From Sedimenticola sp. (GTDB lineage Bacteria > Pseudomonadota > Gammaproteobacteria > Chromatiales > Chromatiaceae): a stretch of DNA of 64,000 nt. The translations under genes were made by a program, and so were the position numbers. This document shows, one piece after another, positions 4,324-48,757 of this stretch. The stretch is from assembly GCA_002869585.1 (NCBI GenBank), contig PKUO01000042.1, forward strand, positions 1,261 through 65,260, given 5' to 3'. Within the stretch, counting starts at the first letter, position 1. The number at the start of each line of letters is the position of its first letter. The notes under the pieces were generated by a model. That model saw only the letters and a list, made by a program, of their open reading frames with translations, did no database searches and was not told the DNA's origin.

Positions 4324-5745
4324 TTACTTATGCTTCACGTCGAGCTTGTCGACGGTATCGAATTCAAACTTGATCTCTTTCCACGTCTCCATCGCAGCCT
4401 TCAGCTCTGGGCTGTTATTGGCAGCTTTGGTCAGAATATCTTTACCTTCTTTCTCAAGTTCACGACCTTCGTTACGTGCTTCTACACAAGCCTCAACCGC
4501 AACACGGTTTGCAGCAGCGCCAGCAGCGTTACCCCATGGGTGACCCAGCGTACCGCCACCGAACTGGAGTACAGAGTCATCACCGAAGATGTTGACCAGT
4601 GCAGGCATGTGCCATACGTGGATACCACCGGAAGCAACCGGCAGTACGCCTGGCATCGCACCCCAATCCTGATCGAAGAAGATACCGCGTGAACGGTCTT
4701 CTTTAACATAGCTGTCACGCATGATATCGATCCAGCCAAGTGTTGCGTCACGGTCGCCTTCCAGCTTACCCACAACAGTACCTGAGTGCAGGTGGTCACC
4801 ACCGGACAGACGCAGGATCTTGGTCAGTACGCGGAAGTGGATACCGTGGTGCGGGTTACGGTCGAGAACCGCGTGCATTGCACGGTGGATGTGCAGCAGC
4901 ATGCCGTTGTTCTGACACCACTGTGCCAGCTGGGTGTTAGCAGACCAGCCACCAGTTATGTAGTCATGCATGATGATCGGTGCGCCGATCTCTTTGGCAT
5001 ACTCGGCACGCCTCATCATTTCATCAGATGTCGGTGCAGTAACGTTCAGATAGTGACCTTTACGCTCACCAGTCTCGGCTTCGGCTTTATGGATTGCTTC
5101 CATAACAAAGTCAAAACGGTGTCTCCAGCGCATGAACGGCTGGGAGTTGACATTCTCGTCATCCTTGGTGAAATCGAGACCGCCACGAAGACCTTCATAA
5201 CAAGCGCGGCCGTAGTTTTTGGCTGAGAGACCCAGCTTTGGCTTGATGGTACAACCCAGCAGAGGACGACCATACTTGTTCAGCATATCGCGCTCTACCT
5301 GGATACCCTGCGGTGGTCCATTACAGGTCATTACGTAGGCGATTGGGAAGCGGATATCTTCCAGACGCAGGGCACGCAGCGCCTTGAATCCGAATACGTT
5401 ACCGACCAGTGAGGTCATGACGTTAACCACGGAACCCTCTTCAAACAGATCGATAGGGTAAGCAACGAAGGCATAGAAACAGGTGTCATCACCCGGTACG
5501 TCTTCAATCGCGTAGGCACGGCCCTTATAGTAATCCAGGTCGGTGAGCAGATCTGTCCAGACCGTTGTCCAGGTACCGGTGGATGATTCGGCAGCAACTG
5601 CCGCCGCGACTTCTTCACGAGGCACACCCGGTTGCGGGGTGACTTTGAAGCACGCCAGAATGTCAGTGTCCTTCGGAGTGTAATCGGGCATCCAATATGT
5701 TTCGCGGTACTCTTTTACGCCTGCATTGTAGCTCTTTACAGCCAT
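4324..5745 (-). CDS. cbbL: Rubisco large subunit, form IA
   Basis: 473 aa. N-terminus [18 protein letters not shown] and active-site region [30 protein letters not shown] upstream. Confidence 0.98.
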
Positions 5746-42439: not shown

Positions 42440-44758
42440 TCAGGCGCTTGGACTTGCCTCGCCGCTGGTCTTGCGCAGGGCGCTTACCATGGCATCCAGC
42501 GCCCGGTCCATGAGCGGCTTATCCACCTCACCGAGGATAGTGGCCTTGCCTTCGCGTAACAGCATGGCCAGACCATCCGGGGTAAACTCAGCAACCTTCA
42601 GTCCCTTGCGATTGACAAACAGGCAGGCGCCGGTGACATTGCTGCGCCATGAGAGCTTGGCGCGGTACTTCTCGCCATCCTCCTGGGTCATCTCCAGCCA
42701 ACTGCCAGATTTAAGGGTCCGGGCCTGTTCGTCATAGGCGTCAGCCACTTTCGGGGTCTCTTCTTCGGTAGGCTCCACCGATTCAAGCACGATCTCTTCA
42801 CCCACCAATTGGCTTTTCCCGGAAGCAGGCTCACCCTCTTCTGCAGAGCTGGTCGATGCGGATTTATTCACGGAGGTCGGCGGTGTAACTGGATCAGTGC
42901 CGATTATAGGTGCGGTTTCCGCAGAAACGCCGCGCAGACACCTGACATGATAGGTCTGTAACTCTTTAAACAGACTGGTCAGCTGATGCTGGTTGTAGGA
43001 GATATTGTTCAATCCCTGGCGCAACCCCTTGAGCAGGCTCGGTATCAGTTTCAGCAGCTTCTGACGATCGGCGTAATCCGCTTTAGGCTCGACACTCCAG
43101 ATCAGATCATCGGCCAGCAACAAGGCATTTTTCCACTCAGGCGAGTCGGTGCCGCTCTTCAGGGAGACCAGCAACATCACATCCTTCCAACCCTCACGCA
43201 GAAACCCCCTGACCACTTCCGGAATCTGCCGATGCTGCGCGAGACGTTGATTGATCTCATCAAACACCATCTGCTTGGCCTGGTTTAACTGCTCCTTGCC
43301 CTGGGTGACCTGGGTCGCCCGGTTTTCAGCAATCTTTGCGCTCTTCTTTTCGGTCTCCAGAAAGGCACTGAATTGGTCATTGAGCTCTTCAAACAGGCTC
43401 AGGTCGCTTTCGAATTCATCGACTATGCGACGCACGATTTTGCTGACCCGGTCAAACACACCATCTTCCTCACGGCCATTCGCCTCGGTCCAGCCGACTG
43501 CGGCCTGGGCCAGATTGTTCAGCAGACGGCGCGCCGGATGGCCCTTGTTGCTAAAGAAGCGCTTATCGAGAATCGCCACTTTGAGCATGGGTATCTGCAG
43601 GCAGGCGAGCTGCGCCTTCATGGCCTCATGCAGATTCCGGTCTTCGAGGATAAATTCAAACAGCATGGAGATGACATCGATGGCGTCCTCATCCACCTGG
43701 TCGATACGATGTTTGTCATCCTTGGACTCGACAGCCTTGAGAGTGGTCTCCAGCCCGGTGCGGATGTCATACAGGGTCGCTCCGCTCCTGATGGTCTGAT
43801 CCAGAGGCTGGGTGTGCTGCAGGGAGGTCAGGGCATTGAGAACCTGAGCCGCCTCGAAAACCGGGACTGAAACCGACTGACGCTGAGCCCCGGCCGGCTG
43901 GCCACGACGCATATTCAGCAGATTCTGCAGGGTCGAAAACAATTCCGCCTGCACATCAGCATCGGTAATCGGCAGATTGGTGGGATCATAGTCCGGCTGT
44001 TGTGCGTCTGGCTGATAGTTCGAAGAGGCGCCACGCATCGCCGGTGACACCGGATTGCGTTTCGCGTGCCGGTGCAGTTTGGGTACGATTCCGGCATTGC
44101 CGAGCAGGTCATTCATCTGGTCATACATGCCCCCCAGATAGGCGATGACCTCTTGCTCGAACTGTTTGTAGATCACCAGCTTGACCGGCAGATCGATATC
44201 CGTGTTGCTGATTGCATCCTTGAAGCTGTAGGCGATCGCCGTGGGGGAAACCGGGTTGGAGCCATCCTCGACCTTGGCGCCATTGAGCATGTGACTGAAA
44301 CGCTGATCCAGTGCGTAGAGTTCACGGAAAAACAGGCTTTCGCCCTTGGCGATCATGTTATTGATCGCGAGAGACTCCTCCAGATCCTCATTGTCTATCA
44401 GGGAGAAGTCATCTTCCGTGAGAGAGAACACCGGCTCTTCGGTCAGATTCATGCCGGGCCCTTCGCGCCAGAACTGCTCATAACGCTTGATGATGCCGGT
44501 GTTGAAACTGTTCTCGATACTCTCGCGCGCTATACGCAGCTCGCGCATGGCATCGAAGTAGGAAGTCTGCTGGCTGTTGTTGGTGGCTTTGTCCGCCATG
44601 CGATAGAGGGTGTCATCCATTTTTTCAAACAGATACTCCACCACCTTGGGCAGATTTTTCAGCAAAACCTGTCGACATGCCTGGACAGCGTTCTTGTACT
44701 CATCCTTGAGTTCAACTGATTTAGCGCTTCCAAACGAGATGATATTGTTTAATGCCAT
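42440..44758 (-). CDS. DUF1631-family protein (772 aa)
   Basis: The N-terminal region ([33 protein letters not shown]) resembles DUF1631 proteins of gammaproteobacteria. Confidence 0.65.
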
Positions 44759-45024
44759 CGTCCTGTATCGCCTTACAATTAAACTGGAGCGCTCCGGAGT
44801 GGATTGCCCACGACTTACAATCTAGTGACATAACCCGCCAATCGTTGTGATTACATTCACAAATCGCTGAAAGTCGAATTTTTGACAACCAGAAACGTGA
44901 CCTGGTTCGTAAAGAGATAGATAATAACGCGCCAAATTACAAGAGCTAAGGAATTTTATTCGTTTTTTCGACCTATCTTATTCTCTGATTAACAACAAAC
45001 CGGTGCTCGTGTATCTTCCCTAGT

Positions 45025-45759
45025 ATGTATCAGTTAATCAGACACCTCTGGGGTTCATTAAAAGAGAGCATACGCGATCTTACACCGATTATCATCGTTA
45101 TCGCCTTTTTTCAGCTGGTCGTCCTGCAGCAGCCGATACCCGATCTGCTCGGCCTGGTGACGGGTACCGTGCTGGTGGTGGTCGGGCTGACCCTGTTTGT
45201 GCATGGATTGAAAATCGGGCTGTTTCCAATCGGTGAATCCATGGCCCATGATTTTGCCCGCAAAGGCAGTGTCTTCTGGCTGCTGACCTTTGCCTTTGCC
45301 CTGGGCTTCGGCACCACGGTGGCAGAGCCCGCGCTGATTGCCATCGCCAAGGAGGCGGCCAATATCGCCGCCACCGGCGGGATGATCGAGCAGAGCGACA
45401 GGGCAAGAAACGACTATGCAGACGGACTGCGCCTCACCGTGGCGCTCTCTGTAGGGGCGGCAATCGTGCTCGGGGTGCTGCGCATCATCAAGGGCTGGCC
45501 GGTGCAGTATCTGATCCTCGGCGGCTATATCGGGGTGGTGATCATGACCATGTTCGCCCCGCCCGAAATCATAGGCATTGCCTATGTCTCCGGCGGCGTG
45601 ACCACCTCGACCATCACCGTACCCCTGGTCACCGCCCTGGGCGTGGGCCTGGCCACCAGTATTCGCGGGCGCAACCCGATGACCGATGGCTTTGGCTTGA
45701 TTGCCTTTGCCTCGCTGACTCCGATGATTTTTGTCATGGGCTATGGAATGCTGTTGTGA
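45025..45759 (+). CDS. DUF1538-family integral membrane protein (paralogue A)
   Basis: Polytopic. Shares [10 protein letters not shown] and [17 protein letters not shown]....[15 protein letters not shown] blocks with the next gene. Confidence 0.75.
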
Positions 45760-46556
45760 TGGGTGGAATTACCAGCTTTCTGCAAACACTGCTTTCCACC
45801 GTTCAGGATGTGCTGCCGATCGCCACCATCCTGTTCGGCTTTCAGTTCATCGTACTGCGCAAAGGCATCAAAAACCCCGGACAGATTCTGCTGGGATTTG
45901 TTCTGGTCCTGTTCGGCCTGGCCTTTTTCCTGCAAGGACTGGAACAGGCGCTCTTCCCGCTGGGAAAACTGATGGCGGAACAGCTCACCGCGCCGGAATT
46001 TCTCGGCATCAGCGAAACGGCAAACACAGCCGGCGAAAACTGGCACCACTACCTCTGGGTCTACCTGTTCGCCTTCACAATCGGCTTTTCCACCACCATT
46101 GCCGAGCCTTCGCTGATCGCAGTGGCGATCAAGGCCAACCAGGTCTCCGGTGGCGCGGTCGGCATCTGGGGGCTGCGCATTGCCGTGGCGATTGGCGTGG
46201 CCTTCGGCATCGCACTGGGCGCCTACCGGATCGTCAGCGGCACCCCTCTGCATTACTACATCATCTCCGGTTACATCGTGGTGATCATTCAGACACTCTA
46301 CTGCCCGAAACAGATCATAGCCCTGGCCTATGACTCGGGAGGCGTCACCACCTCGACAGTCACGGTCCCGCTGGTTGCCGCCCTGGGACTCGGCCTGTCC
46401 AGTAATATTCCCGGTCGAAATCCGCTGCTGGACGGATTTGGCCTGATTGCCTTTGCCAGCCTTTTTCCTATCATGAGCGTCATGGGCTATGCGCAACTCA
46501 GTGAGTGGTTCGCCAAGAGACACTCCCACAAGCAAGCCCACCGGCCTGGAGAATAA
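45756..46556 (+). CDS. DUF1538-family integral membrane protein (paralogue B)
   Basis: Overlaps the previous gene by 4 nt and has the same conserved blocks ([10 protein letters not shown]; [21 protein letters not shown]). Confidence 0.75.
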
Positions 46557-46558
46557 AC

Positions 46559-46909
46559 ATGCACTTCAAACTGATTATTGCACTCATCGAAGATAGTAAG
46601 ACCAATGCAATCGTCGATGCCGCCCGCCAGGCCGGCGCCACGGGCTCCACGGTGATCAACCAGGCACGTGGCGAGGGGGTGAGCAAGAGCAAGACCTTTT
46701 TCGGCCTCAACCTGGAGGTCCAGAGAGATATGATTCTGATGCTGGTCGAAGAGCACCTCAGCCGCTCGATCCTGGAGACCATCGCCCGGGTGGGCGAGTT
46801 CGAGGAGAAACCCGGAACCGGCATTGCCTTTCAAATCGATGTCGAGGACGCCATCGGTGTCACTCACCAGATCCAGGAACTGACCCGCGTTGTCGAGGAG
46901 GAGCTGTGA
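46559..46909 (+). CDS. PII-like signal-transduction protein
   Basis: 116 aa. MHFKLIIALIEDSK...AGATGSTVINQARGEG fits the PII beta-alpha-beta pattern. Starts 3 nt after the DUF1538 B stop. Confidence 0.7.
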   Translation: MHFKLIIALIEDSKTNAIVDAARQAGATGSTVINQARGEGVSKSKTFFGLNLEVQRDMILMLVEEHLSRSILETIARVGEFEEKPGTGIAFQIDVEDAIGVTHQIQELTRVVEEEL

Positions 46910-47307
46910 ACGCTGGCACAATCATACGTGTTCGGGATGTTATGAAATCAAATTTTGACACCGTGGACGGCATGGACACAGTCGCTACCGCGCTGGATAA
47001 AATGGCCCATGTGGAAACCAAGTCACTGGTGGTCAGAAGGCGCGATGAGAAAGACGAATACGGCATCGTCATGCTCTCCGACATTGCCCGCAAGGTACTG
47101 GCCAAGGACCGACCGCCAGAACGGGTCAACATCTACGAGATCATGACCAAACCGGTGATATCCGTGGATCCCGAGATGGACATCCGTTACTGCGCGAGAC
47201 TCTTTTCTCGCCTCGACCTGTCACGGGCACCGGTGATCAAAAACCGCGAAATCGTCGGTATCGTCAGCTTCACCGACATGGTTATCAAGGGGCTGCGCAG
47301 CAAGTGA
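46906..47307 (+). CDS. CBS-pair domain protein
   Basis: Two CBS motifs (VRDVMKSNFDTV..; IYEIMTKPVISV..GIVSFTDMV). The GTG start overlaps the PII stop. Confidence 0.8.
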   Translation: MNAGTIIRVRDVMKSNFDTVDGMDTVATALDKMAHVETKSLVVRRRDEKDEYGIVMLSDIARKVLAKDRPPERVNIYEIMTKPVISVDPEMDIRYCARLFSRLDLSRAPVIKNREIVGIVSFTDMVIKGLRSK

Positions 47308-47867
47308 TCATCGACCCCCAGGGGATGCTCCCGGCGGCGCGCCAGTGCCCCTCGCCGAACCGCGATCTGCGGCCCGCAGGCTGTGACCCGGAACTGCTGA
47401 TCATCCACAACATCAGCCTCCCCCCCAACCAGTACGGTGGCCCCTGGATCGATCAGCTGTTTCTCAACTGCCTCGAAGCCGATCAGCACCCCTATTTTCA
47501 GGAGATCTGCCACCTGCAGGTCTCCTCGCACATTCTGATCCGGCGCGACGGGGAAATCGTGCAGTACGTGCCACTGGGCGAGCGCGCCTGGCACGCCGGA
47601 CAATCGGAATTTGAGGGACGCCCCCAGTGCAACGACTTCTCCATTGGCATTGAACTCGAGGGGTCGGATGATATCCCCTATACTGACAGTCAGTATCAAC
47701 GGCTGACTGAGGTTGCTGCGGCGATAATAGAGCGCTTTCCCGGGATCAGCGCGAAACGCATTACCGGCCACAGCGATGTGGCGCCTGGGCGAAAAACCGA
47801 TCCCGGACCGGCTTTTGACTGGGACAAATTCCACAAGCTATTGGCAGAGCGGTCGGCAGACCGATAA
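47304..47867 (+). CDS. ampD: 1,6-anhydro-N-acetylmuramyl-L-alanine amidase
   Basis: SPN...RP......LLIIHNISLPP, AWHAG.S and GHSDVAPGRKTDPGP.FDW motifs. Confidence 0.88.
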   Translation: MIIDPQGMLPAARQCPSPNRDLRPAGCDPELLIIHNISLPPNQYGGPWIDQLFLNCLEADQHPYFQEICHLQVSSHILIRRDGEIVQYVPLGERAWHAGQSEFEGRPQCNDFSIGIELEGSDDIPYTDSQYQRLTEVAAAIIERFPGISAKRITGHSDVAPGRKTDPGPAFDWDKFHKLLAERSADR

Positions 47868-47902
47868 AATCCATTTATTAAAGCAACCAACAGGCAATTC
47901 GC

Positions 47903-48757
47903 ATGGCCTTTTTATCCATAGTCATCAGTCTGCTCATCGACCGTTTCTTTCTTGAAAGCGACAGCTACCGCCAGCATCACTGGTTCAAGGACTACGCTGG
48001 TTGGGTGGCAAGGCGCACGTTTGCCGAGAACACCTATAGCCGCAACCTGGGGCTGCTGCTGATCCTGGCCCCCCTGCTGCTGATCGTCGCCTGGCTGCAG
48101 ACAAAGTTTGATTCGGGCCTGCTCGGCCTGGCATTCAACAGTGGCATGCTGTTGCTCTGCCTGGGGCCCATGGATCTGGATCGCCAGGTCAATGCCTTTC
48201 TAGATGCCGATGACAAACAGCAGGTGGAGCAAGGCCACTCCCTGGCCGGTGAGATCATCCATGGCCCGGTACCGGAAGATGAGACCCAGCTCAGCCGGGT
48301 GCTGGCGGAAAGCATCTTCATCCAGGCCTGCAGCCGTATCTTCGGTGTGCTGTTCTGGTTCCTCCTGCTCGGTCCGATGGGAGCGGTACTCTTCCGTCTC
48401 ACCCAGCAGTTGCTGAAACAGACAGACGATGTCGGCGCCATCCAGCATCTGCTGAACATTCTCAACTGGATACCCGCCCGCCTCAGCGCCCTGGCCTACG
48501 GCATCGGCGGCAGCTTCGACGATGCCCTGCATGGCTGGCGTCAGCACTACACCCTGATCAACCAGTATCCAGGTGACAGCAGCGCACCGATTCTTGCTGG
48601 CGCCGGGATGGGGGCGTTGAAACTGAACGAGAGCGATGACGGCGAGCTCCCCTCCCCGGCAATCGCCGCCGAATCGGCGCTCAACCTGGTCTGGCGGGCC
48701 AGCCTGATCTGGGTCGGTCTGCTCGGCTTCGCCTATCTGATCAACTGGATCAGCTGA
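47903..48757 (+). CDS. ampE: AmpE-like membrane protein
   Basis: Membrane protein directly after ampD. Its N-terminus resembles AmpE (..LLIDRFF..). Confidence 0.65.
   Translation: MAFLSIVISLLIDRFFLESDSYRQHHWFKDYAGWVARRTFAENTYSRNLGLLLILAPLLLIVAWLQTKFDSGLLGLAFNSGMLLLCLGPMDLDRQVNAFLDADDKQQVEQGHSLAGEIIHGPVPEDETQLSRVLAESIFIQACSRIFGVLFWFLLLGPMGAVLFRLTQQLLKQTDDVGAIQHLLNILNWIPARLSALAYGIGGSFDDALHGWRQHYTLINQYPGDSSAPILAGAGMGALKLNESDDGELPSPAIAAESALNLVWRASLIWVGLLGFAYLINWIS

Follow-up and report, generated by a model that had tools for sequence, protein, structure and literature searches.

In the genome of the gammaproteobacterium Sedimenticola sp. (assembly GCA_002869585.1), four open reading frames (ORFs) on the + strand encode, in this order, two DUF1538 membrane proteins, a PII-like protein and a stand-alone CBS-pair protein. 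They span positions 45025-47307 of the window analysed here, a stretch of 64,000 nucleotides (nt) that covers positions 1,261-65,260 of the forward strand of contig PKUO01000042.1. We consider it probable, though well short of certain, that this cassette encodes a UmpAB-type monovalent cation (Na+/Li+/K+)/H+ antiporter that is set post-translationally by two dedicated sensors, the PII-like protein and the CBS protein. An earlier reading of the window by a model that saw only its letters and ORFs (hereafter the first-pass annotation) had compared the layout to that of PII-controlled transporters. This comparison is strongly supported by conserved gene linkage, with a PII-like gene beside the DUF1538 genes in 115 of 126 loci and a CBS gene in 96, whereas the regulation itself is argued by analogy with the AmtB-GlnK and SbtA-SbtB systems.

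The four genes are packed as closely as the first-pass annotation had described, with a 4-nt overlap, a 2-nt gap and a second 4-nt overlap, all of which can be read directly in the sequence. The umpA-like gene (subunit A, 45025..45759, +; 244 amino acids (aa)) meets the umpB-like gene (subunit B, 45756..46556, +) at a junction that reads GTGATG; the overlap is 4 nt if umpB starts at the GTG at 45756 (266 aa), or 1 nt, as TGATG, if it starts at the ATG at 45759 (265 aa). The gene for the PII-like protein (46559..46909, +; 116 aa) follows across the junction TAA-AC-ATG, its ATG being preceded by a GGAG Shine-Dalgarno sequence, and the gene for the CBS-pair protein (46906..47307, +; 133 aa) begins with a GTG in the GTGA that follows GAGGAGGAG. 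We treat the cassette as an operon on the basis of these overlaps, the Shine-Dalgarno sites within it and the absence of convincing terminators; a scan for the latter returned 5 terminator-like sites against 4.0 expected by chance, in other words nothing above chance. The genome contains only this one DUF1538 pair.

Both membrane proteins match the Pfam family DUF1538 (PF07556; gathering cut-off 22.6 bits) from end to end, with 227.4 bits for the first (model positions 1-211) and 226.8 bits for the second. They are 47% identical to each other and have in common the AEPxLIA motif and two longer conserved blocks, and the paralogous pair that had been recognized from these blocks at first sight is therefore real. 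DUF1538 matches occur in genomes as pairs or fusions, and the two window genes are adjacent paralogous subunit genes. Each of the proteins scores far higher on its own NCBIfam subunit model than on the other, over the full length (383.8 bits for UmpA, NF041627; 358.9 bits for UmpB, NF041628).

The first-pass annotation knew of no assigned function for DUF1538, and had itself named a documented function as a finding that would count against its proposal. On this point it was wrong and out of date: besides the strongly matched UmpA and UmpB models, the UmpAB proteins of Halomonas zhaodongensis have been published as a two-component Na+(Li+,K+)/H+ antiporter (PMC5484666). The umpAB genes were isolated by complementation of Escherichia coli KNabc, whose salt and alkali sensitivity they rescued; the membrane heterodimer was shown by co-immunoprecipitation, and pH-dependent antiport of the three cations was measured in everted vesicles (PMC5484666). 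The antiporter was active in E. coli without a PII or CBS gene, the clone having stopped after umpB, and that work makes no mention of PII-like or CBS genes (PMC5484666). DUF1538 also appears, together with Mrp, Kdp and Trk, in the table of key pH-adaptation gene families of a machine-learning study (PMC13255231). The Sedimenticola pair resembles the Halomonas pair in being two adjacent, overlapping paralogous genes for proteins of ~250 and ~270 aa, in matching the UmpA and UmpB models over their full length and in sharing the conserved motifs. It differs in that its scores (384 and 359 bits) lie under the equivalog cut-offs, and in that PII-like and CBS genes, absent from the published account, stand directly 3' of the pair in the window and in nearly all of its relatives. 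In addition, antiport activity and heterodimer formation are known only for the Halomonas pair.

To place these scores, we surveyed 400 genomes of Gammaproteobacteria for UmpA at a match threshold of E <= 1e-100, and a further 301 drawn from the order to which an Aestuariirhabdus metagenome-assembled genome (MAG) belongs. UmpA matches were found in 96 of the 400 genomes, with scores of 340-408 bits, and the window protein falls in the middle of this range. No genome in either survey exceeded the UmpA cut-off, the best reaching 420 bits. Because none of the ~700 sampled genomes passes the cut-offs, the UmpA and UmpB equivalog models must be regarded as very narrow; in place of a Halomonas that passes them we used the genome with the top score (420 bits) and Halomonas sp. 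SpR1, which has the fused type. The family as a whole is present in ~24% of the sampled Gammaproteobacteria and in 38% of a Pseudomonadota sample.

Strong evidence for a functional unit comes from the conservation of the layout. We assembled 126 loci (80 from named genomes, 34 from an even sample of the phylum and 12 further ones) and compared every ORF in them with the window proteins. The order UmpA-UmpB-PII-CBS was found in 87 loci, followed in 22 of these by ampD. A fused UmpAB of ~495 aa, followed by PII and CBS, occurs in 4-6 loci; a split pair with PII only in ~10; and a divergent fused protein of 520-610 aa with PII only in 9. The PII-like gene lies directly 3' of the DUF1538 pair or fusion in 115 loci and is followed by a CBS gene in 96, which provides the phylogenomic co-occurrence that the first-pass annotation had asked for. 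The linkage to PII spans split, fused and highly divergent DUF1538 types, with mutual identities of only 23-33%. The spacing is also maintained: the gap between A and B is mostly -4 or -1 nt, the median gap between B and PII is 8 nt, and that between PII and CBS is -4 nt in 74 of the 96 loci. In genomes with two systems, the partners are present separately for each. In the genome nearest to the Halomonas model (420 bits; L124, G834), the order PII-UmpA-UmpB-PII-CBS is followed by a fused system with its own PII and CBS genes, and in Marinospirillum alkaliphilum (L133) a split and a fused system lie one behind the other, both complete with PII-like and CBS genes of their own. Halomonas sp. SpR1 (L132) has the order fused DUF1538, PII-like, CBS. 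Among the 11 loci that lack a PII gene, two (L035 and L079) run into the end of their contig, and in another (L075) no more than 666 nt of downstream sequence is available.

The four-gene order, which is found again in about 90 of the 126 loci, is far beyond chance. Because the linkage is near-universal, the junctions are coupled and duplicate systems each have their own partners, the pattern would be difficult to account for if the PII-like protein did not work with the transporter, joined by the CBS protein in a large clade. By analogy with known systems, regulation of the membrane pair is very probably the dedicated task of the two proteins. We found no paper that links PII or CBS to DUF1538 or UmpAB in the indexed, searchable literature.

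Several individual loci deserve mention. In Ca. Parabeggiatoa, Thiomargarita and an uncultured gammaproteobacterium (L013, L016, L058), a lone umpA is followed by several kb of unrelated sequence, and a tblastn search found no umpB, PII or CBS within these three loci; either the operon has been split in large sulfur bacteria or these are assembly artefacts. A MAG labelled Candidatus Bathyarchaeota (L055) carries a UmpA 77% identical to that of the window within the full gammaproteobacterial order, and a mis-binned contig looks more likely here than an archaeal copy. The split system of L124 has an extra PII-like gene upstream, and in L133 an extra P-II gene follows the second CBS gene, beside genes for Usp and a SulP/STAS transporter. 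A Gynuella MAG has a ~380-aa ORF (L127:888-2036, - strand) downstream of the gene for a 610-aa fused DUF1538 protein; this ORF contains several weak PII-like segments and is possibly a multi-repeat PII protein. In Halomonas sp. SpR1, no Pfam hit is recorded for the 116-aa protein encoded after the fused DUF1538 gene (L132:7485-7835); a close counterpart of it in a related genome (L086:5413-5763) shows ~30% identity to the window PII-like protein, and annotation pipelines probably miss this branch of PII-like proteins.

The third protein of the cassette matches the Pfam P-II family with 52.8 bits (gathering cut-off 25 bits) and has the ferredoxin-like beta-alpha-beta-beta-alpha-beta fold; it has no NCBIfam match, and its sequence similarity to solved PII proteins is remote (E about 0.03). 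An AlphaFold2 (AF2) model based on an alignment of 77 sequences (predicted local distance difference test (pLDDT) 84.7) has the PII fold with an extra C-terminal helix at residues 102-115. When this model was compared with solved structures by Foldseek, GlnK, GlnB, SbtB and CPII scored equally at ~1e-6, with a probability of 1.00 and template modelling (TM) scores of 0.6-0.7 for GlnK and GlnB. This is the third PII protein of the Sedimenticola genome, beside a canonical GlnB and an amtB-linked GlnK. Compared with these two, it keeps the GxxGxT strand, the glycines at the base of the T-loop and two B-loop glycines (G88 and G90), and it has a basic residue, R56, near the K58 position. It has lost R38/Q39 (replaced by V41/S42), D88 (T89), K90 (I91) and R101/R103 (G/T), and it has no Tyr51. 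Because these ATP/2-oxoglutarate residues are lost, the canonical MgATP/2-oxoglutarate site is not intact. The T-loop is ~5-8 residues shorter and highly conserved (ARGEG....KTFFGL), and it is the most conserved surface segment of the protein.

None of the named PII types fits this protein. GlnK and GlnB were rejected on account of the absent ATP/2-oxoglutarate residues and T-loop Tyr51. SbtB was rejected since the genome has no Sbt_1 match and the protein has no CGPxGC redox loop and no cysteines, its end being ...RVVEEEL. PstA/DarA, and with it cyclic di-AMP (c-di-AMP) as ligand, was rejected since no DAC (diadenylate cyclase) domain was found in the genome, in a search that gave matches in 11 of 14 control genomes. 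CPII was rejected since the genome has neither DabA nor bacterial microcompartment (BMC) shell genes. As the Foldseek scores are equal for GlnK, GlnB, SbtB and CPII, no described PII subfamily can be assigned, and we regard the protein as a divergent subfamily dedicated to DUF1538 transporters.

The fourth protein consists of two tandem CBS domains (Pfam 68.9 bits, in two stretches), that is, a Bateman module; with the P-II match, this agrees with what had first been proposed for the third and fourth proteins. A suitable comparison is plant CBSX, which is likewise a stand-alone CBS-pair protein. The ribose-binding motif of CBS domains is G-h-h-S/T-x-x-D. It is kept in the second domain as GIVSFTD (G-h-h-S-x-x-D); in the first domain, which has GIVMLSD, Met takes the position of Thr/Ser. 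Among solved structures, the CBS pair of Microcystis CBS-CP12 (5nmu) is the nearest relative, with E 1.6e-25 over residues 6-128 of the window protein. CBS-CP12 of Microcystis aeruginosa binds adenosine monophosphate (AMP) specifically and with sub-micromolar affinity (PDB 5nmu; PMC6142219), and it acts on the soluble phosphoribulokinase (PRK) (PMC6142219). An adenosine-type ligand is a reasonable inference for the window protein. The likeness is confined to the CBS pair: because the window protein has no CP12 domain, it should neither form the hexamer nor take part in the PRK regulation seen with CBS-CP12, and its partner in the window is a membrane transporter operon.

The fold of the transporter itself has no solved relative. 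DUF1538 has no sequence relative in the PDB. For AF2 we took a natural fusion of UmpA and UmpB (L086, which shares 97% identity with a Halomonas sp. SpR1 protein) and obtained a confident model, with a pLDDT of 85.1 and a predicted TM score (pTM) of 0.84; the second half of the model was based on 39 fused sequences. The addition of split UmpB sequences to the fusion alignment was abandoned, as MAFFT placed UmpB on the first half. A Foldseek search of the PDB with this model gave no structural relative at E <= 0.001 and no match below E 0.01, and the weak top matches (EAAT, INDY, MATE, CLC, YdaH) were set aside as non-informative, with TM-scores < 0.25. In the secondary structure of the model, the invariant AEP and SGGVTTST motifs lie at helix breaks, which suggests, by analogy with other transporters, that they may contribute to an ion site.

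The distribution of positive charge is opposite in the two subunits. In 107 UmpA and 99 UmpB sequences, the mean number of Lys plus Arg residues is 2.76 in UmpA and 0.61 in UmpB at the N-terminus, 0.34 and 2.84 in the first loop, and 0.02 and 4.54 in the C-terminal tail. The window proteins follow the same pattern: UmpA has an N-terminus rich in Lys and Arg and no C-terminal tail, and in UmpB the first loop and the C-terminal tail are positive. The acidic loops also alternate between UmpA and UmpB. Seven helices have been predicted per subunit (PMC5484666), and natural fusions join the two halves through a short, hydrophilic, disordered linker. Because of the opposite charge bias, the seven helices per subunit and this type of linker, the sequences point to UmpA and UmpB as antiparallel halves, that is, to an inverted-repeat transporter that is still split into two genes. 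The SMR pairs and the Fluc/CrcB pairs are antiparallel small transporters and evolutionary precursors of inverted-repeat transporters. UmpA and UmpB resemble them in being encoded by adjacent homologous genes with opposite positive-charge bias, and in occurring as fusions in other lineages; they differ in that each half has ~7 helices rather than 4, and in that their topology is predicted.

From these observations, the following mechanism may be proposed. The homologous seven-helix subunits UmpA and UmpB would insert into the membrane in opposite orientations and together make up a single inverted-repeat unit. From the cytoplasmic side, the PII-like protein would dock on the transporter and gate it through its short, highly conserved T-loop, as GlnK does with AmtB and SbtB with SbtA, and the CBS pair would add a signal of energy status by way of an adenine nucleotide, probably of the AMP type. 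Both regulators would act after translation, given that UmpAB is active in E. coli on its own. We infer the ion transported in Sedimenticola, the docking of the regulators, their ligands and the direction of the regulation from these comparisons.

The closest parallels are AmtB-GlnK and SbtA-SbtB, in which the T-loop of a co-encoded PII-family protein plugs the cytoplasmic face of the transporter (bioRxiv 10.1101/2023.08.10.552651). In the cassette, likewise, a gene for a PII-fold protein stands directly beside a transporter gene, and the linkage is conserved over a wide phylogenetic distance. The differences are considerable: DUF1538 is an unrelated transporter family whose fold has no solved relative; the T-loop is ~5-8 residues shorter, and the equivalents of Q39, K90, R101, R103 and Tyr51 are absent; there is no SbtB-type redox loop; and a CBS pair has been added as a second sensor. 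Docking is known in the two model systems, and for the cassette it is predicted from gene linkage. A bolder reading, which we hold only tentatively, is that DUF1538 may represent a structurally new class of secondary transporter, built from two antiparallel seven-helix halves, with a non-canonical PII-like protein as a standard subunit and a CBS co-sensor in a large clade, and would then be the third natural PII-transporter system after AmtB-GlnK and SbtA-SbtB.

Several points weigh against a regulated UmpAB-type antiporter. The scores of 383.8 and 358.9 bits lie below the equivalog cut-offs of 490 bits for UmpA and 500 bits for UmpB, and the NCBIfam models accordingly do not certify orthology to the Halomonas proteins. 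PII proteins are normally trimeric, whereas UmpAB is a heterodimer, and the stoichiometry of a complex is hard to match. The PII-like protein lacks the phosphate-binding basic residues of canonical PII and may bind something else or nothing. Finally, the function of the family comes from one heterologous study, and the physiological substrate could differ, because the KNabc assay has also credited Na+/H+ antiport to several unrelated families in the same laboratory (PMC5996927, PMC6055358, PMC6440370).

The last of these points leads to the rival that survives best, namely that the DUF1538 pair moves another physiological substrate (uptake or release of K+ or NH4+, an organic osmolyte or an anion), that Na+/H+ exchange is a side activity, and that the PII-like and CBS proteins still gate the transporter. 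It is in keeping with there being a single functional study of the family, with a fold that has no solved relative to fix the mechanism, and with the established knowledge that dedicated PII regulators are known for nutrient transporters (AmtB, SbtA) and not for Na+/H+ antiporters. Some loci also lie beside osmolyte or anion transporters, such as BCCT in Halomonas and SulP/STAS with Usp in Marinospirillum. On the contrary, antiport of three cations was measured directly in everted vesicles and the salt and alkali sensitivity of the host was rescued (PMC5484666); no recurrent neighbour across lineages points to another substrate; and the carriers of the cassette are mostly marine, halophilic or alkaliphilic, a distribution that fits salt and pH homeostasis. 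We regard another substrate as unlikely, although it deserves to be kept in mind.

It is still less probable that the PII-like and CBS proteins are co-transcribed passengers that regulate soluble targets and not the transporter. UmpAB does work without them in E. coli (PMC5484666), CBS-CP12 has a soluble target in phosphoribulokinase (PMC6142219), and three loci (L100, L110, L112) keep the DUF1538 pair without an adjacent PII gene. Against this, a PII gene keeps its place beside DUF1538 in 115 of 126 loci, whether these are of the split, fused or highly divergent type (23-33% identity), the junctions are translationally coupled, and in the two-system genomes (L124, L133) each system has a PII and a CBS copy of its own.

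The remaining idea, raised by the first-pass annotation, was an energy-gated uptake of inorganic carbon (bicarbonate) for Rubisco in the manner of SbtA-SbtB. The genome does contain Rubisco, with a single large-subunit gene at 4381-5307 of the window (- strand), and the reported lack of carboxysome or known inorganic-carbon transporter genes extends to the whole Sedimenticola genome, in which no DabA, SbtA (Sbt_1) or BMC shell genes were found; it looks like the genome of an autotroph without a recognisable carbon-concentrating mechanism. Even with this absence of DabA and SbtA, with a PII-like model that matches SbtB and the bicarbonate-binding CPII as well as GlnK, and with a closest solved CBS relative from a Calvin-cycle regulator, carbon uptake is hardly credible: many organisms that are not autotrophs carry the cassette (Vibrio, Colwellia, Thalassotalea, Halioglobus, Halomonas, Marinobacter, Methylophaga and methanotrophs), Rubisco is 40 kb away from its place between DUF1631 and ampD, accumulated bicarbonate would be of little use without carboxysome shell genes, the PII-like protein ends in VVEEEL without the C-terminal CGPxGC loop of SbtB, and the measured activity of the family is cation/H+ exchange. 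The missing carbon pumps are real, but they are no pointer to the cassette.

The neighbourhood of the cassette can be described briefly. Upstream, a presumed promoter region (44759..45024, +) is an AT-rich 266-nt spacer, with GC down to ~0.50, that is shared with a divergent gene; it contains sigma-70-like matches at 44897-44925 and 44989-45017, which are consensus-level only. The divergent neighbour encodes a 772-aa DUF1631 protein (42440-44758, - strand; 735 bits) that reaches 301 bits on the NCBIfam PacR family model, far under its 1200-bit cut-off, and a DUF1631 gene upstream of the cassette is conserved in Sedimenticolaceae and Thiodiazotropha loci. Downstream lies ampD (47304..47867, +), for 1,6-anhydro-N-acetylmuramyl-L-alanine amidase (NCBIfam NF008758, 282 bits; cut-off 143). 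The stop of the CBS gene and the GTG start of ampD share 4 nt (GTGA), so that the transcription unit probably extends past 47307 into ampD. As a functional partner ampD was rejected, since it is 3' of the cassette in only 23 of 126 loci, mainly in Sedimenticolaceae, Methylophaga and a few other lineages; it is probably a positional neighbour, though translationally coupled to the CBS gene. The gene ampE follows 35 nt after ampD and is overlapped by 1 nt by a gene for a CobC-like histidine phosphatase (47304-48757 for the three genes), and the cassette appears to have been inserted between the DUF1631 gene and ampD-ampE.

The type of transporter described here is already known. What appears to be undescribed in the searchable literature is its pairing with regulators, the non-canonical PII subfamily and the probable antiparallel architecture. 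The DUF1538 family, which has been studied in only one heterologous paper, offers a transporter fold that has no solved structure and what may be a living example of a split inverted-repeat transporter. Within the Sedimenticola genome, the cassette stands as an unexceptional copy of a widespread module, which takes away the ground for a special story of carbon uptake. PII proteins are among the most widespread signal processors, and to our knowledge only the AmtB and SbtA transporter families are known so far to be gated by them; our data suggest that one more transporter family has a PII-type partner of its own. If DUF1538 is indeed a third natural PII-transporter system, roughly a quarter of the Gammaproteobacteria would possess it and would tie ion and pH homeostasis, or the handling of another solute, to a metabolic signal. 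A UmpAB-type antiporter set by these two sensors would link salt and pH homeostasis to the energy or metabolite status of the cell.

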